Shown in pieces: positions 32,601 through 59,379 of a DNA stretch of 64,000 nucleotides. Origin of the DNA: a virus. The notes under the pieces are model-generated. The model was not told where the DNA came from, did not search any database, and worked only from the letters and a program-made list of their open reading frames with translations. The first letter of the stretch is position 1. Each line of letters begins with the position of its first letter. The DNA is taken from the IMG/VR virus record IMGVR_UViG_3300038301_000548, positions 96,001 through 160,000 of that record; one strand, 5' to 3'. A program made the position numbers and the translations under genes.

Positions 32601-35600
32601 CATTAGCCGCATTTTGATATTTAAAAAGTTTAAGGATTCTCTTATCGCTGGTCTCATATTTTTTTGTCTCGTATATTTGGTGTAAAATATGGATTTGCTT
32701 TTGCAAAGAATCGATCGAATTAGCTCCGCCGGATGCTTCGTCTCTAATAACTTGAAGCAGTCTAAAATTCTCTAGTATGGTTTCTACTGTTATGTTAGCT
32801 GCATCGTCGAAGTCTTCGTCTTCTGGTGTTGGTAATTTAAACCCATCTAGATAATAAGCTGGACCATATGCACTCAATGAGGAAACATAAGACATCTTTG
32901 TTGGCTCGAACATGTCCTTTATTGATTTAATTGCTTGGTCATTTAGATTCTTTGGTAACTGATTTACTATCGCGTCAGGGTTTGACATGTCTAGTAACGG
33001 AGGGATAATTGCATTCAGGCCCTGTTCCGATAGCAGTTCAAAGGCGCGAGCCTGAGACATCAATTGATCTTTAGCTTCGTCTAGAACCCGGTTGATTTCT
33101 TCTTCAGATGCGTCGTTGGCTAGCAAGCTTCTTCTTAGGTCAGATATGGCAGTCGCAGTGTCTTCGCATGTTGTTGCTGTTGTTAGCCAGTCAGTACCTG
33201 ACAGTGCTTCGCAAAAGCCATCCGGCATGAACGTGCCGATATGGTCATATAGTTGCATAATAGATTCTTCATCGTCTAATTGATCCAAACCCATTGATCT
33301 AGCTATCGAGGTTAACATTGCTATTGTAGCTGGATCTAATGGGTCACCTTGTAGTAAACGACACAATTCTCGGTTTGTTAAAACTACTCCTGATCGTTCT
33401 ATAAAGTCGGGCGCCAAATCTGCGTTCTTCTGGTCTAGGCCTAAATCAACGAGGCCTCGAGCCATAGCATTCTGGACTACGGAGGTTGAAGAACTAGCTT
33501 CCCCATATAATTGATCTCTTAAGATCTCTTCACACCATGGTATTCTTAAGAAATCTATGATTGTTCTTGCAAGAGTACATAAGAATCGTCCAATGATCTT
33601 ACCTAGCTTATCCCAAAGAAATTTCCAGGCTCCGGCCCACCATCTAAATATGCTAAAATCTGGCCAATCCGGATAACTAAAGTTAGGTATGCTGAGATTG
33701 AACGCTGGGATCTTTAGACACTTTAAGAAATCACATAAGAGAGCCCCGGGAGATACTCTGTCAATAAATTCTGAAAAGACCTTTGGGACAGTACATGCAT
33801 TACCGAGCATTTTTAAATGCTCGTCTTGACCAAAGACGCTATCTAAATTTGTAAAATCTTTTGATGTGGTTCTTTCATCATACCACTCTTTGAAAGGCGC
33901 CTTGATGTTTTGATCGGTCCAAATCTGCAAGGCGTCATATGTCTTTGCGATTCCATCAAGACCTGGAGTGTACCTCTTTAAATATGCTAGGCCCTTCTTT
34001 CCCAAGTCGAGGTCACTGCAAAGCTCAGAGTTTGAAAGATCGAAGAAATTTAACCATGAGCCCATGGCCAAGCCACCTGACATACGATACAGTTGAGAGA
34101 GATAGATTGACGTCATAGGCCTTGTTAGTGCAGGCGCCTGAGCTTTAAGGTCACTATACTTTCCTTTGATGCCGCGGCCCTTTCGACTTTCAAAAATTAT
34201 ATTTTTGCCGGCTTGGATCGATTCAATCTGGCCAGTATTCGCTGAAAATATAATTTTAATGTTGTTGGGGTATTTCCATCTCCAGTTTGATGCTGCGCCG
34301 TCAGCGTCGGCGCCGCCCTGAATTGCATCAAAACCACTAAGCTCCTGCGCATATGGAATCTCGGACACCAGGCCTGCTAGTGTGTCATCACCAAACTCAA
34401 AATCTGAACTTTGAGGCAGTTTTTTCTTGATATAATTTTTTAACTGCAGCAGACCATCTTCTAACTTTGTCGCCTCTAAGTTGCCATCGTAATTGCTGGA
34501 AAATCTTATTTTGTCTTCTTTGCACGAAGCGAAAGCTTCTCTTATATCTTTGGCCGAGATATCGACGCGATCTTTTATCTCGCGATAAGTCATATAAATT
34601 TCAACGTAACGTCGATTGCCAAATTTCTTGTTATATGCCCATTCACTAAACGCGTCTAATGGCGTCTTAAGTAGACTGGTTCCTACTTTTAACACACTAT
34701 TGCTAAACTCGTCTTGTGAGCCAGAAAAGTCTCCTAGGTTTATTGGGCCCAGGTTTACATTTGCGTTACCAAAAACGCCCAGATCAACGCTGGTATTTGC
34801 AGTTTCAGCACGGTTTTGGAGTTCGGCAGCTGCAGTCTGTGACTCTCTTAAAGCCCGGGCAATTTCCCTTCTTCTTTTAGCGGCTAAAGCCCTGTATTCT
34901 TCATACCTCCTCTCTTGCTGGTCTTCTGTAAGAGGTGCATCGTTGCATGAGTCAGTTGGATTAGATGGCTCTTGTATTACCGGTGCTAAGGCACCTTGGC
35001 TATTTTGGCTTTCCGAAATTCTTAATTGGCTTTCTAGGATTCCATTATCTTCTGTGATCTGTGCCAGCTTCGCTCTATTTATAAGGAATTTAGCCCTATA
35101 TTTGTCGCCTGGGCGGAGGGACGGAAACCTAAATTCTACAAACTTTATTAATGGCTCTGCTGTGTTTATACTCAGCATGAGGCCTCGGGAGTCGGGATCA
35201 GCGCTTTCGTATACTTCTATGTCAGTATAAGGTTGTATAGACTGGATTGTCTGCACGAGGTCTTCACTTAAATCTTGATATCCCGGAGACTCAAACTGCT
35301 CTAAAAAATTGTCTAGAAAAACATCAGGGGCTAGGAGCCATTCTCCGGATGATACATTCAGCTTTGGGAATATCTGTGATATTCTTTCTTTTGCGGGGGA
35401 TCCCGTAGGGCTATTGAGCCGGCTGGCTCCGTCTTGGCCTTGGATGGTATCATATTCACTCCCCACAACGGTGAATGCGTCTTGGAAAGATGCTGATTTT
35501 GGATCTAATTTAAATAATATTGGTTTGTTTAGATGAACAAGAAGACTATATAAAGCTTTCTGCTCCAACTCTCTTATCGCTTGTTGGTACTCTACTTTCT

Positions 35601-36840
35601 CATCCAGAGTAGCTGTTGGTGCTGGTCTGAATGGAGGCAAATTGCTTAAAGTAAAATCAGTCTTATAGAAGTACCCCATAACGGTGTTACTAATAACAAA
35701 TGGGTCTGGGTCTGTTAAGGGGTCTGGTTCACCAATTCGAGATACCGCATCTGCATAATCGCCTGAGGACATAGTTGAAACGCTTTCTGATTTTGGAAAA
35801 TTATTTGAGACCTCTAGGAAAGCAGAATACAAAACACTCTTCCTACTCCTCTCTATAAGTTCATACCTTAAAGCAGCGAAATGCCTGTGGGCCAAGTCCC
35901 TGTATTGATCGTTGATATTATTACCGTCTAGACCCAGATCGACCGGCTGCAGAGGGTTTAATACACTTAAAGATTCACTTGGGCGAGCGGTGGCGTTATA
36001 TTTCTCTAGCGAGGCTATGAAATTCGAACCATCAGGGCCGAGATAATCTTTAAAGCCGGCGGGGCCGGCGCCCTGATCATATGAATAATTTGGGTGGTTT
36101 GGTATGCCTGCGAGGCCTTGCTTATTGTTAATTCCTTGCGACGTTGCTAGATCTTGAGAAAGGGTGCCCTCTACCAAAGACTGGTGCAAAGTGCGAGGAA
36201 TAATATCGTGAGCAAGAGTTTCGTTTTGGAAAACATTCGGGTCATGGTAGTATGTTGTCGCTCCGACTCTTGTTCTTGGGCGCCAGCCATGGAGCACTGC
36301 TAAGGTGGCCTCACCCAGAGTACCAAACTCAGATTGGAAAAAAGTGTCTATAGCCTCAAGTTGATCTTGCGCTAATTGTAGTATTTGGCTCTCAGCTCTT
36401 CTTTCCCGCTCATCGTCAGTTAGGTAACCGTCGTCTTCGACGTCTTTGTTGGAGCTGAAAACTTTGTTATAAACTTTTGAAGGTATTCCATATTTTGAAA
36501 ATAAGTAGCTTAGTATGTAAAATTGGTTATCTAATTGGAATTTTGTAAGGTAGGCTTCCATTGTGGAATCAAATGTTGCCGCCTCTCTCAATGAGACTTC
36601 CTTCCCAGTCATACAGTCCAGCCAATGATTCTTGTTGTCGAACACATCGGGATTCGCTTCTTCGGGAGCAAGAAGCTCTACAGATCCGAGCGCTTTACGA
36701 ACTACTAGAATGTCGCGACCTTGGTCACCGGGGCGACGTGGACCAAAACTTATTTTTTCTGATTGTTCAGTATTAGAGCTTGGAGTCTCTAACTCTAATT
36801 TGTATGGCCTGGTTGCGCTATATCTTCTATTATTGCTCAT
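23629..36840 (-). CDS. Giant protein (4403 aa), probable virion/tail-associated, with a peptidoglycan-binding-like N-terminus
   Basis: Uninterrupted 13.2-kb ORF between the spike and gp25 genes. The N-terminal G.QGRDILVVRKAL...LTKFQ...GTLGEATL resembles a PG_binding_1 fold with an insertion. Confidence 0.7.
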   Translation of the reverse strand: MSNNRRYSATRPYKLELETPSSNTEQSEKISFGPRRPGDQGRDILVVRKALGSVELLAPEEANPDVFDNKNHWLDCMTGKEVSLREAATFDSTMEAYLTKFQLDNQFYILSYLFSKYGIPSKVYNKVFSSNKDVEDDGYLTDDERERRAESQILQLAQDQLEAIDTFFQSEFGTLGEATLAVLHGWRPRTRVGATTYYHDPNVFQNETLAHDIIPRTLHQSLVEGTLSQDLATSQGINNKQGLAGIPNHPNYSYDQGAGPAGFKDYLGPDGSNFIASLEKYNATARPSESLSVLNPLQPVDLGLDGNNINDQYRDLAHRHFAALRYELIERSRKSVLYSAFLEVSNNFPKSESVSTMSSGDYADAVSRIGEPDPLTDPDPFVISNTVMGYFYKTDFTLSNLPPFRPAPTATLDEKVEYQQAIRELEQKALYSLLVHLNKPILFKLDPKSASFQDAFTVVGSEYDTIQGQDGASRLNSPTGSPAKERISQIFPKLNVSSGEWLLAPDVFLDNFLEQFESPGYQDLSEDLVQTIQSIQPYTDIEVYESADPDSRGLMLSINTAEPLIKFVEFRFPSLRPGDKYRAKFLINRAKLAQITEDNGILESQLRISESQNSQGALAPVIQEPSNPTDSCNDAPLTEDQQERRYEEYRALAAKRRREIARALRESQTAAAELQNRAETANTSVDLGVFGNANVNLGPINLGDFSGSQDEFSNSVLKVGTSLLKTPLDAFSEWAYNKKFGNRRYVEIYMTYREIKDRVDISAKDIREAFASCKEDKIRFSSNYDGNLEATKLEDGLLQLKNYIKKKLPQSSDFEFGDDTLAGLVSEIPYAQELSGFDAIQGGADADGAASNWRWKYPNNIKIIFSANTGQIESIQAGKNIIFESRKGRGIKGKYSDLKAQAPALTRPMTSIYLSQLYRMSGGLAMGSWLNFFDLSNSELCSDLDLGKKGLAYLKRYTPGLDGIAKTYDALQIWTDQNIKAPFKEWYDERTTSKDFTNLDSVFGQDEHLKMLGNACTVPKVFSEFIDRVSPGALLCDFLKCLKIPAFNLSIPNFSYPDWPDFSIFRWWAGAWKFLWDKLGKIIGRFLCTLARTIIDFLRIPWCEEILRDQLYGEASSSTSVVQNAMARGLVDLGLDQKNADLAPDFIERSGVVLTNRELCRLLQGDPLDPATIAMLTSIARSMGLDQLDDEESIMQLYDHIGTFMPDGFCEALSGTDWLTTATTCEDTATAISDLRRSLLANDASEEEINRVLDEAKDQLMSQARAFELLSEQGLNAIIPPLLDMSNPDAIVNQLPKNLNDQAIKSIKDMFEPTKMSYVSSLSAYGPAYYLDGFKLPTPEDEDFDDAANITVETILENFRLLQVIRDEASGGANSIDSLQKQIHILHQIYETKKYETSDKRILKLFKYQNAANAAHPIHNVPASAKPQHQLWPAEEALAPYREATYDERSRAGNSKETRLYPRPIGFSRNSFFEKDESNNITNKYITSGEQAEDTLAQIDSTAHADQANLGLFNFGSNYLVYESGVPYHFVNNYKLLANAESAEELEPGSQVSYLQQVLQDRLMELQGILSTYLPNVSTPIPHESHLEIIKDVLSASKETSAELRDIAARGLNPLTHPTQGIYFDAPAVDQNNRFIDGPDVRKLTIDFKSALGVPGPSISLYEFKSKTSALPENSLDQKKYDPYTITLYGDNLFRDTSAENPKVFRFCDSIVGPDNEIQDANLITVRADSDRQVTYIEASHDRGSTVATHVFTNYQNIPPGVYTRREIFARMHLKSLTSMAQRYELPAAERADEIQEEFDKLTIDGEIRDNLYHKQYPEFLEGIFEQVFYSLRNSRVYDEDGYFDSFRRRVAGQVFYNEIEDCYKNRYSVSQLGTLSFEKLITDEIGRQLRAEMSRPENSFENVDYDDLGPIEKAIQNVCMIGFVRICLVELLLKGSLAYSVWDFEGVYDEPLMKEFIYEFIKHEIERIPSIRDEWKPIISRITGIQAPYIALKRLVQQQSMKMQDLSKNVYNNNPNLDYYKWFTSYFIPQSEVSRTMISIDGDPVDIEAGVFINDVGEVIVEPPEDLRNFERPEYFWWQHPLRDTNNVIINPEIENSNSGLGSVRTALNHVNGNDPFFHIEHGLRVTGPLAALETLILPTREIIEAFTTANIDDNPELFTDVENRIPQKLNIKDSLGRLQNVSHPNIENYDFKETPAIPGSAQGSSVEEYDADSTIDKREEIFHIDDFLGAINGALNEDDLDKYIKHMQGLYDYDEDPDSATGGRQRNTDVQTVDGYPYAIDRTPTRFIKKTRRIVKFNKDFISHGFGSFFEGALGDTSLSEFHEMLNGSISFPGDQPAAALRSACSNSITHGDSEDSYYIIAQDGKDLMKMYHELGLRYIGDPGAFTTLEQSSKMSDILLEASENSKEYLEYISENLKHDFQSGPSTQHYENIEFTNIDELNIKFANGQARVDQINGSMLRAYGIPHGLTFPIGKDSQAATLGVQRDLLGRTLPVDDNNIFDLTRDQLVHMRHPAAPHRQRIFENKLGEFEDEQSFDTARAAFETPLMSPRDQATREEHWVETVYEFSGDASILAGLHGSFTIGDTFDPAVLHFIPEQETSNLFGDFHENTLQLLYDEVDGYDSDGHLIGTGENDNNTMLDPALVQNSRTFFMRRSDQRPVPDNRLDIDGLPLGPYIIRPMGIDKLSNIALTAPWLIANPSANSNARGTETANENYREEDCPFQRTNVEASMLHWLRRAQNESWSFQPIGGGDPMNLGAARLDSEDPRGETCKILHEVPEFFEARANGRLDLRAKKHKLLPPNIYPIPLRILVTRVYISGQSRPSEVYCKVVLPEYLEDLKKSTSITTQGLSRIGAIQSNIGKLNVAIRDIMTDFTNLHNGFVQALSADDDDNPHRITSLDNKILAAAAAPGADRQREWTGRFPDFSLDFFDRTQQGMQKIYRSSALNPTSRVQFCSIERIYSKVFENDTDPSAANNPNYNSKAELDRLFSSRGNLIRRSGINPTGFYLLEKDYNLSNPRTSTGTFFQSLTAIKGVLNSFLREKRPDSLWGYLTAQTVSPLTQEQGENLNLPGNLTTNIIPTNIEDRTLKATSQEAINMMFEGNANLPDLAFTQTAPLGLTLATRSRDDIALDVTIVSPNSMAATDMFTTGFLPSWSQALLPTVALESGLPGNIEHLDAQTTPRRKLINPDVCGFNNVNSLICPLSAPAGMSMPYSIARNHNFFSFSRVDKKYRLTPDLSPGNLVDTRRAMAESINTIDYYFRGENQTLIPRYATGDFKPSDIPGLEGYADDGKLIQPPQGPVSGLLNDGAGEYLVNYNRIPTIKMPFHNKNNNTLYYSDGRLSMADVSIFIRSVIKHTLNKTSRPGAENTHFGSENLDSLYSYPAFFRNKKNAEVIRRLIQMGQAAEAADEVEDFIVPTSEDAPIDNIYTAVYRIKAQNSKIIKQVQVDEAFDLIMQFLTGIGVMVARRYMYSIRSECNILYGETKFTNPVAPYALNLMIKVYQKIKDSNLSPEDTIAAFAAMAQYDISADLLVQNVNRDQGANQKFWNRVPANQQEDGAGLAVVRQKVPWALACLYYMHIMLCWIDTSQTFSKVKDPGDQGLGPHSDEFRKLFFMLCINMSHSTGTDFWGNPSDRQNSQMFRFRVTQIPGYNDTNSFNGDWKDRANKREISIMHGDGNGRVVHRLAGSDSHVEAAQMAIKPRDMEEWIPWSDLGYNVRENGRFSNLLGNRGGIEWLIRTTILFHNEVCNDRFGALGLNFNGNFGTGPIGILAFLNQREFAPRQFDPLDFVTAESRLHDPRNPNPHNTWQAALEGYNNSFDGQAEDNLDSFAENVRAAHMRNMVLYEEEEMTSVFAGRPEDILLKMDYEMYKFVFTPGNTDYTPLTKSFNKYLLDKQITDTDLDTAMSPLQLKEQYNKAILKLLYTSPVAIPGLPANTIHSLPISAGTVINIKDTYMAALNGSTGIDQAISSAVFDKALLGVKQGLMRTSTVEQICRFVSNIPINNHSPGAAASEITDLSRSTILRKPSEELRTGRMDNFLSVPLGEERLDISPLGEVMINCWPLSSFKEKYHLRQRGISERLLRKPETKALLQYVLPVKRFQAISTVYATSLLSGYSTMPSILQTPKHNLAFLTKMSGLNAKERNEFLNNHSQAEAMKSLTDNPISNPENLDCFDLAIPREFFDNFKDMLKDLIKYFPSALFRGIASTIDPAYKEMKTHWENCNIENLSWDGIRTVSADKSLMSAGLQRNAEGEKGKYSTVIVSTGRDIWYSVDSLFDGDTKPMKRTLERAVGYLYKGPVALMDGVFAFGVPCMDHESQWPDEGLKPWNADRYGHPLSPFTILALSTYQLPGEKKMRQRSGACDDEAPALYTPEHMEERVCRSPLPSPFGQMPNPEDFE

Positions 36841-36860
36841 TTTTTTATAGTAAGTTCCGT

Positions 36861-38336
36861 TTAATTAACCGTATTATTGCGGCTATTGATGTACTTTGGG
36901 CCGCCGGGATCTAAATACTTCGTAGCATACAGACCTTTGTTTAGATCATTCATAAATAGTCCTAACCTAGTATTAATCAATAAGTCTAAAGTTGTTAATA
37001 TACCTTGTAGTGTTGCTTCGATACTCGGAGGAGTCGGCAGCAGTTCTGGCAATATATGGTAGTGGTTTGCTAAAATCTGATTAAAGTTCATTTGACTTGC
37101 GGCAAACGCATCAACGATGCCGCCTAATTTACTTATCAAGTCCACCATCTTTGTCAACCCCTCAACTAGATTATCCCCTAATACTAGTGGCTGTTGTGGT
37201 AATCTTTTTCCCGATTTATCACTACCATTCTCAGATATCAGGTGGATGCCGTTATTTTGTGTTATCCTATTGCCTTGCGAGTTAAACTTCTCATGGCGGC
37301 CGCCGGTAATGATCTTTATATCTTGTCGCGAATGGAGTCTAAGTTTATCCGCTTTCAACATTATCCCAGAACAAGGGTAAAGCTTTGTCTTCTTTTCCTG
37401 TTGTTGAGTGGCTGCATCAGGTGACTTAATGTTAAAATTATAATCTAAAGTTGTCATCTGTCCCATGTATATGCGAGCAGCGTCCATGCAGATTCCTGGG
37501 TGGTAGCCGCCTTTAAGTTGAACATTCTTAATCTCTGGTGTATTATGAGTGTTGAACATTGGGCCTGCGTTGATTGACCCTGAGTGCGAATCTTTATTAA
37601 TTGGAAATGGGGCCATTCTCCCTACAACCAAATCTAAACAGCCTGCTCCCATATGATCTGAATATCTAGATTCTATATTTCGCTTGTTTGAATTTACCGA
37701 ATATGAAAAGCCTGGATCATTTGTTCTTTCTCTTCCGAAGAAAATAGATGCGTTGTTATTAGTAGCTGACTTATTTAGTGTCTTTGCTGTCAGCACTATT
37801 TCTCCAGGCCTCAATATGTGGCCGGGTAATGGTTCTTCTAGAGTGCGGCCGCTTTTGCCATCATTGCCGCCAGGAAAATCTATATGGTTCCTTGGTAGGC
37901 CCTTGATCATCGATCTTTTTGGAGGATCAGACTGTGCAGATGCGGGGGTCCCTAGCGACATACTTTTAGGTTCCGGGTCGTCGGTATCGGCGGCGGATGA
38001 CTTAATTGGGTCTGGTATCAGACTATCCAGCTTGTTGGATTTCGTTGCCGATTCTACTGACAGGGTCTGGGGATCTGCTTCTTCAAGTACTCCTCGCAAT
38101 AGCCTCTGGCTCACATCAAACTTATGCTCAAACTGAGAATATTTTCCATAGACAGTGCTTGTAAAACGCTCCATAGCAGAACTATATGCTGCGCTTTCGG
38201 TATTACCAGATGCTTCGACAGATGTTGACTCATTATCAATTTCTACCGAAATTCTCACCTTATGTTTGCCGGTCTGTTTGTCGTACATTCGAGAGAATCT
38301 AGGAGCCTTTGTGATCGTTAGGCCGTTATACTTCAT
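36861..38336 (-). CDS. Putative baseplate hub/central spike protein (491 aa)
   Basis: C-terminal QPLVLGDNL...NHYH resembles the spike HxH metal-binding apex. NNASIFFGRE and LDLVVGR are beta-rich hub-like segments. Position next to baseplate genes. Confidence 0.55.
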   Translation of the reverse strand: MKYNGLTITKAPRFSRMYDKQTGKHKVRISVEIDNESTSVEASGNTESAAYSSAMERFTSTVYGKYSQFEHKFDVSQRLLRGVLEEADPQTLSVESATKSNKLDSLIPDPIKSSAADTDDPEPKSMSLGTPASAQSDPPKRSMIKGLPRNHIDFPGGNDGKSGRTLEEPLPGHILRPGEIVLTAKTLNKSATNNNASIFFGRERTNDPGFSYSVNSNKRNIESRYSDHMGAGCLDLVVGRMAPFPINKDSHSGSINAGPMFNTHNTPEIKNVQLKGGYHPGICMDAARIYMGQMTTLDYNFNIKSPDAATQQQEKKTKLYPCSGIMLKADKLRLHSRQDIKIITGGRHEKFNSQGNRITQNNGIHLISENGSDKSGKRLPQQPLVLGDNLVEGLTKMVDLISKLGGIVDAFAASQMNFNQILANHYHILPELLPTPPSIEATLQGILTTLDLLINTRLGLFMNDLNKGLYATKYLDPGGPKYINSRNNTVN

Positions 38337-38344
38337 TATAATCC

Positions 38345-38851
38345 TTATTTAATAATCCCATGAGAATAGTCGTACTCTCGGTCGAACTCAATCCGGACGG
38401 TAGTTAGCTTTCCTGGTTTTGTGCCGTCAATTTTTCTCTTGTAACCTTTTGGAAACCTAGAGATTCTTTTCAGAGTCATAGCTATATCACTTTTTTGATT
38501 ACCTTTTTTCTCACCGGGGGTATTGAGGAGATCTATGCCGGTCCGCGTGGGTTGGGGTAGTGGGGCACAAATCTCCTCGACGTAAACGATTACTTCAAAG
38601 ATAGTTGTGTTGGGATCCATATCATTACCCTCGGTTACTGCCTCAATAAAGTCCTGGTCAAAGCGTTTTTGAAAGTCTTTAAATTTAATCTCTGTTGTAT
38701 ATAATGCGAAACCCGTAAACGTCATTGTTTCATTAGCTCTACTGGCTTCTTGGATTTTGTTAAATACCATAGCGTCCAGGTTTTCTTTCTTGGTTGCAGG
38801 AGTCCCAGTGGTCGCCTTTGGTGCAGCCTTTTGTTTCGCGGTACCGCCCAT
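38345..38851 (-). CDS. Hypothetical protein (168 aa)
   Basis: ORF with GGAGG RBS, coupled to its neighbours. Confidence 0.6.
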   Translation of the reverse strand: MGGTAKQKAAPKATTGTPATKKENLDAMVFNKIQEASRANETMTFTGFALYTTEIKFKDFQKRFDQDFIEAVTEGNDMDPNTTIFEVIVYVEEICAPLPQPTRTGIDLLNTPGEKKGNQKSDIAMTLKRISRFPKGYKRKIDGTKPGKLTTVRIEFDREYDYSHGIIK

Positions 38852-54748: not shown

Positions 54749-56053
54749 TTATAACTTTAAAGCGGCAATTGTTGCGACTTTTGACCTTTCTCCTTTCAAT
54801 AATGTTATGTGGCCAGTTATGCTTTCATCTTTAAGGCGTTCTACGACGTATGAGAGGCCATTGTTGGTTGCATCTATATACACGTTGTCAATCTGTTCAA
54901 TGTCCCCTGTAAGGACGATCTTAGTGCCTTCTCCGACGCGCGTTAAAACAGTCTTGATCTCGTGCTGTGTCATGTTTTGCACTTCATCGATGACAATGAA
55001 TGCGTTTGATATTGATCTTCCGCGGATGAATGTCATTGCTTCTATTTCTATTTGGCCTTTTTCTTGATACATGTCTAGGGTCATTCTATCATCTCCCATA
55101 AGAAATTGCAAGTTATCTTGTATGGGTGCTAGCCATGGTAGCATTTTTTCCTCTAGAGTACCTGGTAAGAAGCCAATATCTTTGCCCACTGGTTCAACGG
55201 GTTTGGTAACTACTATCTTCTTGTAGACCGGTTTTCCTCCGAGTGTCTGCTCCAAGCCTGCAGCGAGGGCCAGCAGGGTTTTACCTGAGCCGGCTTTACC
55301 AATAAGACTGACTACTGGTATCTGTGGATCCATTAAAAGATTTAAGGCAAACTGTTGCTCTTTGTTCCGGGGTTTTGTTTCCCATGCGGTCGACTTTAAA
55401 ACTTTTCTTAATGGTTCATTTTTACTAACAAACTTGGCTAGGGCTGACTTCTTAGGGTTTGAATTAGAAATCATCATGATGAATTGATGCGGACAGAAGG
55501 CATAACTCTCATCTAGATGAACGGGCTTATCTTCATAAAAGTTTTCTATGATCTGATCGTCGACCAACACTTCACACAATCCAGAATAAAGATCATCTGA
55601 TTTGGCAACAACTTTTTCAACCTGAAAATCCTCTGTGAGTATTCCGAGAGCATCACACTTGACTCTCATATTAATATCTCTAGATACTACAACAACTTTT
55701 CGGGATTTGTTTTCTTCCATTTCCGAAAGTGCTGTTGCTATAATTTGGTTGTCTGAATCTTCTAAATCTAGATCGTCTGGAAGACAAAGCGGATTATAAC
55801 TCCTAACTTTAATTATGCCTTTCCCCTTCTCTAGGCGGACTCCTCTTGCGAGATTTCCCTTACTTCGAAGTTGGTCCAATTTGCGAATAGTCGATCTGGC
55901 TTGCATTCCGACTGTGTCTTGCCTTTTTTTATGTTTGTCGATTTCGTCTAAAACTTTTAAAGGTATTAAGATATCGTTATTTGTAAATGATGTTATAGAT
56001 TCTGCGTCTGTAAGATATACGTTAGTATCTAAGACGTAAGTTTTTTTTGCCAA
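54749..56053 (-). CDS. phoH: PhoH-family ATPase with an N-terminal PIN domain (PhoH2/YlaK type)
   Basis: PIN: VLDTNV, LDEID, DNQII, SRDINMR. ATPase: RNKEQ, GKAGSGKTLL, IGFLPG, RGRS, DEVQN, GDIEQID. Confidence 0.92.
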   Translation of the reverse strand: MAKKTYVLDTNVYLTDAESITSFTNNDILIPLKVLDEIDKHKKRQDTVGMQARSTIRKLDQLRSKGNLARGVRLEKGKGIIKVRSYNPLCLPDDLDLEDSDNQIIATALSEMEENKSRKVVVVSRDINMRVKCDALGILTEDFQVEKVVAKSDDLYSGLCEVLVDDQIIENFYEDKPVHLDESYAFCPHQFIMMISNSNPKKSALAKFVSKNEPLRKVLKSTAWETKPRNKEQQFALNLLMDPQIPVVSLIGKAGSGKTLLALAAGLEQTLGGKPVYKKIVVTKPVEPVGKDIGFLPGTLEEKMLPWLAPIQDNLQFLMGDDRMTLDMYQEKGQIEIEAMTFIRGRSISNAFIVIDEVQNMTQHEIKTVLTRVGEGTKIVLTGDIEQIDNVYIDATNNGLSYVVERLKDESITGHITLLKGERSKVATIAALKL

Positions 56054-56333: not shown

Positions 56334-57098
56334 ATGCAGACAAAAATACTATTTTTATTGACTATTTCTCTCTTTTTAGCGCCGGCATGCACTTTATCTA
56401 AAAATAATGCATATATAAAGCCCCCAATTGACAACTTTGTAAAGGTGTTCAAAGAAGCAAAAATAAAAAAATGTAATAGAAAAACAAAGGTTTGCGAAGA
56501 GAAAACCTTCTACTCCACTGGTAGTGGGTTAATCATAGATCTAATTATGGGAGAGACTATTGTCTTGTCCGCGGGTCATGTTTGTTCTTCTGATTTTAAG
56601 TTTCCAGATGATAAAAAGTTTTCGTTTAGTCACCAGGAGATAATTCTCGGCTTAGACAGTAAGGGTCTTTTTCACCCGGCACATGTTATAATATCTGAAC
56701 AACAGTCAGCTAAAGATGGCACTGCAGACCTATGCGCTCTTTTTATCCCCACTATAGACTATAAGAATATCAAAACAAGAGTAAGGTTTGATCCAAAAAC
56801 CCCAAGGGCCGGCGATGAAGTGTACTATTTGGGTGCACCGTTTGGTGTTTTTCACCCCCCGACAGTTCCGATATTTAAAGGAATCTATAGTGGAGTAGTC
56901 TCCACAACCTCAGCGCTGGCGACTTTTCCAGTGGCGCCTGGATCCAGTGGAGGTGTAGTCTTAAACCTCTCAAATAAAATAGTGGGAGTCGTGTATGCTG
57001 TGCATCCTGGGTTAAATCAAATCTCTATGATCACTAACCATCAGAAGACAAGAGAGTTTCTTATTAAGGTTAAGAACCGCTTTAGAGTTAAAAAGTGA
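56334..57098 (+). CDS. Trypsin-like (S1) serine protease with signal peptide / possible lipobox
   Basis: Catalytic triad SAGHVC, ADLCAL, PGSSGG; hydrophobic N-terminus ending LAPAC. The only clear plus-strand gene. Confidence 0.88.
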   Translation: MQTKILFLLTISLFLAPACTLSKNNAYIKPPIDNFVKVFKEAKIKKCNRKTKVCEEKTFYSTGSGLIIDLIMGETIVLSAGHVCSSDFKFPDDKKFSFSHQEIILGLDSKGLFHPAHVIISEQQSAKDGTADLCALFIPTIDYKNIKTRVRFDPKTPRAGDEVYYLGAPFGVFHPPTVPIFKGIYSGVVSTTSALATFPVAPGSSGGVVLNLSNKIVGVVYAVHPGLNQISMITNHQKTREFLIKVKNRFRVKK

Positions 57099-57411: not shown

Positions 57412-58053
57412 TTAGATAAGCTCATCTACCAATCCGTATTCTAAGCACTTTTCGGCTTCCCACCAAATATCGTGTTTTAATAGATTATCCATCTCTCTCT
57501 TTGGTATCTTGGTATGTTCCCTGTAGATATCTTTTATTTTCTTCATTAGCATTTCTGAGTTTTTCATGTCATCTTGCATTTCTTGGAACTTACCCCACAT
57601 GAGACCTGAAAGTTGGTGAACCAACATGCATGCATTCTTATGCATAAAGCGGCGTTCTCCCACACAAGACATTAAAGTTGCTGCGGAGGCTGCGCAGCCA
57701 TCAATTACTGTGTGTACTGGAACTTTAGAGTTCTTTATATAATCTACTGCTGATAAGCCTGCAAAGACCGAACCGCCGTAACTGTTTATGTGAAGTTTGA
57801 TTGGGGGCGGTGCGTACTCAAGCGGCCCTGTCTTAGACAGCATTGAAATATTCATATTAAAAATGCCTTTATTAAGCTTTAATATCTTAGGTCGCGTTAC
57901 ACCGGAATAAAAGTAAATCCTATTATGACTAAAATCTACAATGTTGTGATCTTCTGACGCGTGGCCTTTGCTTTCAGACGCATAGTCATGAGGCGTCATA
58001 CCATCCTCTTCTTCTGGACCCTCTGTTGTGGATCCCCAAAAATAATCTCTCAA
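57412..58053 (-). CDS. clpP: ClpP-family protease
   Basis: LHINSYGGSV, AASAAT (Ser), MLVHQ (His), HDIW (Asp), EYGLVDE. Confidence 0.88.
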   Translation of the reverse strand: MRDYFWGSTTEGPEEEDGMTPHDYASESKGHASEDHNIVDFSHNRIYFYSGVTRPKILKLNKGIFNMNISMLSKTGPLEYAPPPIKLHINSYGGSVFAGLSAVDYIKNSKVPVHTVIDGCAASAATLMSCVGERRFMHKNACMLVHQLSGLMWGKFQEMQDDMKNSEMLMKKIKDIYREHTKIPKREMDNLLKHDIWWEAEKCLEYGLVDELI

Positions 58054-58054
58054 T

Positions 58055-58627
58055 TTATATCTCCCTCGAAAGTTTCTTTAATATTTGTTTTTTCTGCTCT
58101 TTATTAAACTTTTTTATATTCTTTATGCTAGTATATAATATTTCTATATATATGCCTTCATGGTCCCCCAGTAATGCCGCGGTGATTGTGAAACCATTGG
58201 CACCATTAGCCCAGTATGCTCTTGCTTCCTTTATGCCAGTTTTTATTGCATGGCACTTGGAAGAATAGATTAACTCGTTGATGATCGATGCATCGCGGTG
58301 GACTCGATGTTGTGGGGGTCCATACTTTTTTGTTAAAAATTTAAGAACTAAGTTATATCTTGCTAGACAATTAGAATCCGTAATTCCTCTTGGACCGAAG
58401 ATAAGTAAAGCCTTTGATAATTTATTGTTTGAGAAATAAAGCTGAACCTCTGTCTCCATCGACAAAAGAAGAGTTTTGTTTAGATAAGTCAAAGATCCTG
58501 ATTTTATTGAACCCGTATAGTATCTATAGCCCTCTACTTTAGGAGGTTTTGCGTGCTCTTTGCCCCAGTCTAAACCTAGAGGGCTATAAAACGTCGTAAT
58601 TATCAATAATGTTGCAATATTTATCAT
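58055..58627 (-). CDS. Secreted/periplasmic hypothetical protein (190 aa)
   Basis: Signal-peptide-like N-terminus followed by SPLGLDWG. Confidence 0.6.
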   Translation of the reverse strand: MINIATLLIITTFYSPLGLDWGKEHAKPPKVEGYRYYTGSIKSGSLTYLNKTLLLSMETEVQLYFSNNKLSKALLIFGPRGITDSNCLARYNLVLKFLTKKYGPPQHRVHRDASIINELIYSSKCHAIKTGIKEARAYWANGANGFTITAALLGDHEGIYIEILYTSIKNIKKFNKEQKKQILKKLSREI

Positions 58628-58645
58628 AATTTTTTATTAAGTTAG

Positions 58646-58719
58646 TGGGCCTCCGCGGACTTGAACCGCGAACCTGCCGGTTATGAGCCGGATGCTCTGA
58701 CCAATTGAGCTAGAGGCCC
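58646..58719 (-). tRNA. tRNA-Ile2 (anticodon CAU, lysidine substrate); CCA not encoded
   Basis: GGGCCTC-TA-GCTC AATTGGTCA GAGC-A-TCCGG CTCATAA CCGGC-AGGTT-CGCGG TTCAAGT CCGCG-GAGGCCC-A folds as a cloverleaf. Anticodon CAT at 58683-58685. Has C4:G69, C5:G68, C29:G41 and A73; lacks the initiator C1/A72 mismatch and the triple G:C anticodon stem. Confidence 0.93.
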
Positions 58720-58738
58720 CCACATGAACAATATACAC

Positions 58739-59344
58739 CTATTTAACATAAAGTTCAAGCAGTTTTTTTCGAATAGTTTTGCGAATTCCTGGATTTACTT
58801 TCAAAACGGCTGGTATGACGTTATGACGTATGTGATTTCTCATATGATTTGTGTGCTGGTTTGAAGGATCTTCAGTCCACGGAATGCTATGGTTCTCTGC
58901 GTATGATAGTATTGATTTTTTATCTGTCAAAAGAAAGGGCCTATATATATTTGGATCTCTTTTGTACGGAATAACTTTTCCATTTCCATGGAAACTAGAC
59001 ATAAGCCAAGTCTCTACACAGTCATCGAGGTGATGACAAGTAATAATAAAGTTACTGCGAAGCCTGTTGAAAAAAGCATATCTTTCATCCCTCCAGAATT
59101 CCTCAAGTGATCTTTTGCCTTTAAACCCCTTGATCTTACCAATAACTAGGTTTAAACTATGCTGAAATGCATAATTTTCTACAAAAGAAAGCGCTTCTTT
59201 TGAGTGAATGGTGTCGTGATCAAAATAAGCTAAGCTAACGTCTCTCTTGCCATGTGTAAGGAAATGAGAAACAACCATTGAATCGATTCCGCCGGAGCAT
59301 GCAATTGTTACCTTGTGTGGTATTTTTCCAATTATTCTTAACAT
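58739..59344 (-). CDS. tilS: tRNA(Ile)-lysidine synthetase, minimal catalytic-domain form (201 aa)
   Basis: PP-loop ACSGGIDS, EEFWRDERY, HHLDDCVET, RPFL, EDPSN, RNHIRH. Confidence 0.92.
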   Translation of the reverse strand: MLRIIGKIPHKVTIACSGGIDSMVVSHFLTHGKRDVSLAYFDHDTIHSKEALSFVENYAFQHSLNLVIGKIKGFKGKRSLEEFWRDERYAFFNRLRSNFIITCHHLDDCVETWLMSSFHGNGKVIPYKRDPNIYRPFLLTDKKSILSYAENHSIPWTEDPSNQHTNHMRNHIRHNVIPAVLKVNPGIRKTIRKKLLELYVK

Positions 59345-59350
59345 TTTAAA

Positions 59351-59379
59351 ATTATATCAAATAACTATAAAAATATCAA
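59351..59379 (-). promoter_or_regulatory. Sigma70-type promoter TTGATA-N17-TATAAT for a leaderless tilS-tRNA transcript
   Basis: -35 at 59374-59379, -10 at 59351-59356, exact 17-nt spacer. Predicted +1 falls on the A of the tilS ATG (59344); no SD sequence. Confidence 0.7.

Follow-up and report, generated by a model that had tools for sequence, protein, structure and literature searches.

Why would a phage carry, directly ahead of a tRNA gene, the gene of an enzyme that modifies that kind of tRNA? The question is raised by positions 58646 to 59379 of a 64,000-nt window, that is, the whole stretch of DNA analysed here, which comprises bases 96001-160000 of the 190,698-bp virus record IMGVR_UViG_3300038301_000548 of IMG/VR (rated complete by CheckV). 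On the minus strand of this window, a 201-aa open reading frame (ORF; 58739..59344, TAG stop at 58739-58741) predicted to encode the catalytic domain of the lysidine-forming enzyme TilS is followed, after a spacer of 19 nt (58720..58738), by a tRNA gene with the anticodon CAU (58646..58719), exactly as a preliminary description of the window had proposed. Lysidine at C34 turns such a tRNA from a methionine tRNA reading AUG into an isoleucine tRNA reading AUA. To our knowledge, AUA is the one bacterial sense codon whose reading hangs on a single essential tRNA modification. We read the locus as a phage-borne AUA-decoding module made of enzyme and substrate, with a rough probability of 0.72, the activity of the enzyme, the charging of the tRNA and the timing of expression being predicted from the DNA.

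The source is an uncultured marine T4-like phage with a GC content of 42%, in which the minus strand holds 144 of the 149 long ORFs and a gp23-type capsid gene gives the T4-like character. If the module works as proposed, a globally abundant marine phage clade packs enzyme and substrate into about 700 bases.

Identity of the enzyme and of the CAU tRNA

The product of the 201-aa ORF, hereafter mini-TilS, matched the PP-loop family PF01171 (1.5e-33) and the curated equivalog-domain model TIGR02432 (lysidine_TilS_N), in the latter case with 122.9 bits against a cut-off of 93.6 and over model positions 1-189 of 189. The best sequence matches among solved structures were three TilS entries, of which only the N-terminal catalytic domain was aligned; on A. 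aeolicus TilS the alignment covered residues 25-226 and therefore ran through the TilS-specific subdomain. An AlphaFold (AF2) model was built on 20 family sequences (pLDDT 85, pTM 0.81), and a Foldseek search with it returned TilS chains as the top six matches (2e21, 1wy5, 2e89, 1ni5 and 3a2k; TMq 0.78-0.85, 23-30% identity), while the TtuA/NcsA thiolases ranked below them at 16-20% identity. The PP-loop motif SGGxDS is present as S17-G18-G19-I20-D21-S22. Among 20 family members S17, G18, G19 and D21 were invariant, as were H104, H105, L106 and D108, E111 and T112, R135 and P136, D159, N162, R169 and N170, and R173; by name, the invariant motifs are the PP-loop, HHLDDxxET, RPF, DxxN and RNxxR. 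No conserved Cys triad or CxxC for an Fe-S cluster was found across the 20 members, in which C109 varies (C, V or A). The TtcA model matched weakly (27 bits against a cut-off of 272) and a PHROGs search gave only a weak QueC-like match. On sequence and modelled fold together, the ORF is identified as the catalytic domain of TilS, in agreement with the name given to it in the preliminary description. A TtcA- or TtuA-like thiolase was rejected as its identity, the TilS-specific model having been passed and the Fe-S cysteines not being conserved.

This catalytic domain, a PP-loop ATPase plus the TilS-specific subdomain, is common to mini-TilS and to bacterial TilS of both Type II (A. aeolicus; 1WY5, 2E21, 2E89) and Type I (E. 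coli, 1NI5; G. kaustophilus, 3A2K). With these enzymes mini-TilS shares SGGxDS, HHxxDxxET and the subdomain, and its predicted homodimer resembles the solved dimers. The homodimer model scored 0.62 against 0.39 for the best control, contacts agreed between runs to at least 93%, and the pLDDT of the partner was 88; the mark that it reached was also reached by 20 of 30 proteins whose solved structure is a pair of one chain and by 1 of 23 whose solved structure is a single chain, and, since the solved TilS structures are dimers, the score may only reflect likeness to them. Unlike bacterial TilS, mini-TilS lacks the C-terminal domains, namely CTD1 (Type II) or CTD1 plus CTD2 (Type I), and has a clade-specific basic C-terminal helix, IRKTIRKK, in which K193 and K194 are invariant. 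It ends at residue 201, where cellular TilS runs on into CTD1 and CTD2, and the tRNA comes next. The full-length TilS model NF007942 gave 62 bits against a cut-off of 606, and a search of every frame of the complete 190-kb genome with the models for CTD1 and CTD2 (PF09179, PF11734) gave no match at E <= 1. A split gene was rejected, as no separately encoded C-terminal domain was found in that search.

One-domain mini-TilS proteins are a large clade. At E <= 1e-30, an exhaustive phmmer search yielded 188 clusters at the 50% identity level, and the length of the top 150 was almost always 190-230 aa; marine metagenomes supplied more than 1000 protein clusters. True bacterial homologues, retrieved likewise, measured 281-465 aa. 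The members examined lay on large phage-like contigs, in the known jumbo phages PA5oct and MIJ3, or in a 642-kb megaphage. This megaphage (LR756502.1) carries mini-TilS, a CAU tRNA with C4:G69 and C5:G68 and a tRNA-Ile with the anticodon UAU (L027:2434-2507, L031:1485-1559), and so has two possible AUA-reading routes. Genes for mini-TilS of 206-213 aa were also seen on contigs binned to metagenome-assembled genomes (MAGs) of Halobacteriovorax, Flavobacteriales, Saccharibacteria and Marmoricola (L034, L037, L038 and L045), which are probably phage DNA that ended up in bacterial bins.

The second component was found by ARAGORN and by Rfam model RF00005 (67.8 bits) as a single minus-strand tRNA at 58645/58646-58719, with C34 at 58685 and the anticodon at 58685-58683. 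It folds as a canonical cloverleaf of 74 nt up to the discriminator A73, and its acceptor stem is formed by G1:C72, G2:C71, G3:C70, C4:G69, C5:G68, U6:A67 and C7:G66. Initiator marks, judged like the acceptor stem by the rules of PMC1635315, are absent: position 1:72 is paired (G1:C72), C11:G24 stands in place of A11:U24, and C29-G30-G31 in place of a G29-G31 run. The acceptor-stem rule takes G3 or A3 paired with C70 or U70 as a mark of tRNA-Ile(CAU) that Met and fMet tRNAs lack, and notes that Ile2 often has C4:G69 and C5:G68 (Silva et al. 2006, PMC1635315). All three pairs (G3:C70, C4:G69 and C5:G68) are found in the phage tRNA. The rest of the molecule was compared, at positions 8-65 only, with 49 distinct CAU tRNAs drawn from two bacterial phyla (26 genomes) and labelled by their acceptor stems. 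Against the Ile2 type the body of the phage tRNA was 0.72 identical on average, with a maximum of 0.81; the averages for the Met and fMet types were 0.655 and 0.65. Position 3 is C or U in the Met-type references used, and the nearest E. coli matches are annotated as tRNA-Ile. By its sequence the CAU tRNA is classed as tRNA-Ile2 type, neither Met nor fMet, which upholds the assignment made in the preliminary description.

The same features recur in the family. Among 20 distinct tRNAs, C4:G69 was present in 20 and C5:G68 in 19, and 3:70 was G:C in 14 and A:U in 5. Compensatory changes occurred at seven stem pairs (3:70, 6:67, 7:66, 29:41, 31:39, 50:64 and 51:63), from which it follows that the gene has been selected as a folded tRNA. 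In the phage tRNA, 27:43 is a U27-C43 mismatch, 29:41 is C29:G41, and CTA follows the discriminator A, so that CCA is not encoded. The missing CCA and the mismatch had both been suggested to matter for recognition by host enzymes or nucleases. The variation of both within the family led us to reject such a special adaptation: 12 of 30 members encode CCA, and 27:43 is U-C, U:A, A:U or C-U.

Linkage and predicted expression of tilS and the tRNA gene

A survey of tilS-tRNA adjacency across phages had been proposed, and a scan of viral contigs with the family alignment returned 80 loci. In all 29 viral loci whose TilS was at least 61% identical, a CAU tRNA lay on the same strand, 18-31 nt past the tilS stop; these loci comprise 21 distinct TilS and 20 distinct tRNA sequences. 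Inserts were found on the upstream side of tilS and in the interval from the tRNA to clpP, never in the gap between tilS and the tRNA. The conserved block consists of tilS, the tRNA, zero to two inserted ORFs, the clpP-like gene (downstream in 26 of the 29) and orf96, and its upstream side varies. The adjacency of tilS and the tRNA is far beyond chance.

Another 51 loci were more distant. Six of them had, in total, seven CAU tRNAs within 300 nt of mini-TilS, at offsets of -31, -87, -90, -152/-247, +70 and +280; in each of the six the nearest tRNA was a CAU tRNA, and G3:C70 or A3:U70 was present in all seven. A looser association of mini-TilS with an Ile2-type tRNA thus recurs more widely than the tight tandem. 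In one locus, 90 nt upstream of a 48%-identical mini-TilS, the CAU tRNA was class II-shaped (86 nt, long variable arm, A3:U70; L221:2325-2410).

As for expression, a putative sigma70-like promoter lies ahead of tilS at 59351..59379 on the minus strand, with a -35 box TTGATA (59379-59374), a 17-nt spacer, a TG element and a -10 box TATAAT (59356-59351) that ends 6 nt short of the tilS ATG. This site scores 11/12, and no terminator-like site was found on the minus strand between it and the tRNA; promoter-like sites numbered 12 in the surrounding 3 kb, where shuffles gave 7.0 +/- 2.8, so a single match taken alone is weak. The same layout (TTGACA or TTGATA, 17 nt, and TAnnnT ending 6-7 nt before the ATG) was present in about 8 of the 12 relatives examined, L003-L008 and L032 among them, and in the remaining relatives, which lack such a promoter, tilS directly follows the upstream gene. 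No Shine-Dalgarno sequence precedes tilS, about half of the phage ORFs have one, and a layout like that of tilS was found at only 5 of the 149 ORFs; the tilS mRNA may be leaderless.

A weak second promoter-like site (TTGAAC, 17 nt, TATATT; 58758-58730) lies over the 3' end of tilS and the spacer, and in several relatives (L005, L007 and L016) TGnTATAnn or exact TATAAATA, the T4 late-promoter motif, stands 8-11 nt before the tRNA. The tRNA may be transcribed on its own as well, possibly late in infection. The idea that a single consensus sigma70 promoter serves both genes is therefore plausible, though not as the exclusive arrangement. Only one metatranscriptome, X1, held part of the stretch (7% of sampled words); it gave a single 200-nt contig (60495-60694), which lies inside the upstream gene and does not reach tilS or the tRNA.

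From these elements the following sequence of events can be proposed. A sigma70-type, probably early, promoter would give a single transcript with the mini-TilS gene first and the tRNA second; host RNase P and 3'-end enzymes would excise the tRNA, and the host CCA-adding enzyme would complete it. Mini-TilS, probably as a homodimer, would then use ATP and lysine to convert C34 of the CAU tRNA to lysidine, as its homologues do.

Demand for AUA and possible motives for carrying the module

ATA accounts for 1367 of the 3567 Ile codons (38%) in the 149 long ORFs of the genome and, at 25 per 1000 codons, is the commonest Ile codon. Third-position composition predicts a share of 36.8%, and the match indicates that the phage does not avoid ATA. 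The heavy use of AUA noted in the preliminary description is borne out, and its hand count of 10 ATA among the 22 Ile codons of a serine protease gene (trypsin-like, 56334-57098, among the few plus-strand genes) proved exact. Quite another pattern was seen in the gp23-like major capsid gene, located outside the window (G000:C1:75127-77160): there ATA was the most depleted codon (0 of 32 Ile codons, p = 1.6e-7), AAA the third most depleted (4 of 30, against 26 AAG) and AGG the eighth (0 of 30), and AGA was not depleted. A second large ORF (34979-38413) showed the same bias, with ATA at 2 of 64. Such a bias suggests a host with a preference for codons ending in G or C.

The whole genome encodes three tRNAs, Lys-UUU, Arg-UCU and the CAU tRNA, which read AAA, AGA/AGG and AUA. 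As AUA, AAA and AGG are among the codons avoided in the capsid gene, the most expressed gene of the phage, the set is a fairly clean, though indirect, sign of codon-supply compensation, and this codon pattern refines the picture of phage tRNA genes. The relief of an AUA bottleneck, which had been put forward as one purpose of the locus, gains indirect support in this way: the evidence that the host serves AUA, AAA and AGG poorly, and that the phage tRNAs compensate, comes from the codons depleted in the capsid gene, ATA above all. In the explanation that we favour, the phage uses AUA at a neutral rate, the host would serve it poorly, and extra AUA capacity would be brought beside the AAA and AGA tRNAs. 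The enzyme would be brought too so that a surge of new tRNA is not left unmodified; a CAU tRNA without lysidine would behave like a Met tRNA, and the presence of the enzyme gene fits with this.

Several observations weigh against a working AUA-decoding module. The capsid gene still avoids ATA, so that either the module does not make AUA a fast codon or the gene is tuned to the host. No CAU tRNA was found within 2.5 kb in 45 of the 51 loci with a TilS 44-50% identical, from which it follows that the tight linkage is specific to this marine clade, and part of the conservation in 29/29 loci is inherited synteny of the tilS-tRNA-clpP block. Every characterised TilS that we know of carries at least CTD1. 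In B. cenocepacia TilS, deletion of CTD2 sharply lowered activity (PMC11947777), and a TilS reduced to its N-terminal domain might be weak, dependent on a partner or unable to separate tRNA-Ile2 from tRNA-Met.

The alternative that survives best leaves the module intact and changes its motive. AUA decoding would be made independent of the host after loss of host tRNA-Ile2 or TilS, through host RNA degradation and transcription shut-off or through a tRNA-targeting defence, such as the anticodon nucleases named in the preliminary description, and codon mismatch would not be what drives it. We give this a low probability. Phage tRNAs are reported to sustain translation during host RNA degradation in a T4-like vibriophage, among them a tRNA(CAU) on which lysidine (k2C34) was found (reviewed in PMC13191261); an enzyme gene beside the tRNA is easiest to understand if host TilS is unreliable, and the sigma70-like promoter suggests early expression. 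On the other hand, our searches, none of which was made specifically for such an enzyme, turned up no nuclease aimed at tRNA-Ile2, and the partial match of the tRNAs to the codons avoided in the capsid gene is the classic signature of codon supply. The two motives are in any case compatible and neither excludes the other.

It is very unlikely that the CAU tRNA is an elongator tRNA-Met, that mini-TilS acts only on host tRNA-Ile2 and that their adjacency is an inherited order without coupling. ARAGORN, going by the anticodon, calls the tRNA Met, and the linkage could be passive given that tilS, the tRNA and clpP are syntenic in 26 of the 29 relatives. This explanation conflicts with the 3:70 pair, which as G:C or A:U is not seen in Met or fMet tRNAs (PMC1635315), with the C or U of the Met-type references at position 3 and with a tRNA body nearer the Ile2 type. 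It also leaves aside the independent juxtapositions of Ile2-type CAU tRNAs with distant mini-TilS in other arrangements, and the insertions that hit both flanks and never the 18-31-nt spacer. Finally, that mini-TilS is a PP-loop enzyme of another activity (a TtcA/TtuA-like thiolase, or a C34 modifier using an amine other than lysine) is extremely improbable, as the generic nature of PF01171, the TtuA/NcsA folds in next-best place and the weak TtcA match are set against a passed TIGR02432 cut-off, six TilS folds at the top with higher identity, no Fe-S site (C109 variable, CxxC absent) and a partner tRNA that carries C34.

Possible one-domain recognition, known systems and genomic surroundings

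The preliminary description had named C4:G69, C5:G68 and C29:G41 as TilS determinants. All three are present in the phage tRNA; their role is another matter. In TilS of the E. coli type, C4:G69 and C5:G68 are read by CTD2 (PMC11947777, PMC1635315). Mini-TilS has neither CTD1 nor CTD2, so these two pairs cannot be its determinants in the known way, and they more likely serve recognition by IleRS, rejection by MetRS or the host TilS. The 29:41 pair varies among the family tRNAs (C:G in 11, G:C in 4, U:A in 3 and A:U in 1).

Could enzyme and tRNA have adapted to each other instead? Mini-TilS and the adjoining tRNA would then be a co-evolved, self-sufficient pair that works without either tRNA-discriminating domain of cellular TilS, an idea that we regard as speculative and unlikely to be correct as it stands. 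Mini-TilS could pick its own tRNA by features of the anticodon arm alone; alternatively, it may be non-discriminating and lysidinylate host tRNA-Met or tRNA-fMet as well. In the first case a minimal recognition set would be defined, answering how Ile2 is told from Met without the acceptor stem, and in the second a decoding aid would become a tool for reprogramming host translation. Mini-TilS with its cognate tRNA offers a natural minimal system for the tRNA features read by the catalytic domain, which a domain study of 2025 stated to be open (PMC11947777).

Jumbo phage PA5oct (MK797984.1) has two CAU tRNAs (L026:1469-1545 and L026:1950-2026) whose bodies are identical at positions 8-65 and whose acceptor stems differ, being CCCUCGG (C3:G70, Met-like) in one and GGGACUU (G3:C70, Ile2-like) in the other. 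A one-domain TilS unable to read the acceptor stem should not separate these two tRNAs, which makes them a natural test case for discrimination.

Parts of the system are already in print, namely virus-borne TilS for AUA (chloroviruses), phage TilS (annotated since 2019) and phage tRNA-Ile2; in the literature searched, we found no description of one-domain TilS as a class or of a conserved enzyme-tRNA tandem. The closest published phage enzymes are those of the Pseudomonas jumbo phages MIJ3 and PA5oct, of 203 aa, which likewise consist of the N-terminal domain only and are 43% identical to mini-TilS. PA5oct also encodes an Ile2-type CAU tRNA and differs in having its CAU tRNAs 7-10 kb from tilS, in a tRNA cluster. 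The paper on these phages left the function of TilS open and drew no link to the phage tRNA (Imam et al. 2019, PMC6892783). T4-like phages with a CAU tRNA of Ile2 signatures (Nolan et al. 2006, PMC1524935), and likewise the vibriophage with the k2C34-bearing tRNA(CAU), rely on host TilS, whereas here the enzyme is encoded 19 nt upstream.

In chloroviruses, TilS was reported in 39 of 41 and an AUA-supply logic was already proposed: an AT-rich virus, in which AUA is 12-13 times commoner than in its GC-rich host, has tRNAs for AU-rich codons (bioRxiv 10.1101/2020.07.06.190819). Chloroviruses differ in being eukaryotic algal viruses for which a tandem enzyme-tRNA unit is not described, and the likeness drawn here is one of description, not of sequence. 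Group A pelagimyophages are marine T4-like phages and probably belong to the same wider clade as this phage; their TilS was given one sentence, with the adjacent tRNA and the loss of domains unmentioned (Zaragoza-Solas et al. 2020, PMC7029224). The present phage, at 42% GC, lies above the 30-35% filter of that study (PMC7029224), and a 116-kb contig that carries one of its relatives was placed in a Pelagibacter MAG. Besides this Pelagibacter bin, close relatives were held by an implausible Woesearchaeota bin, and neither is good host evidence.

Around the module, the gene order on the minus strand continues 18 nt past the tRNA with a 190-aa ORF (58055..58627), a variable insert that separates the tRNA from the ClpP-like gene. 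It was present in just 2 of the 29 relatives, had no match in a Pfam search and is outside the tilS-tRNA module. The ClpP-like protease gene itself (57412..58053; PF00574, 3.6e-28) follows on the same strand. ARAGORN found no tmRNA in the window. In relatives, a tmRNA gene with the tag ANDD(I/V)EIFEDFALAA was located 1.3-2 kb upstream of tilS (L007:1384-1693, L016:1124-1429). Near the trypsin-like and ClpP-like protease genes, the minus strand also encodes a fusion of a PIN domain with PhoH, 434 aa in length (54749-56053).

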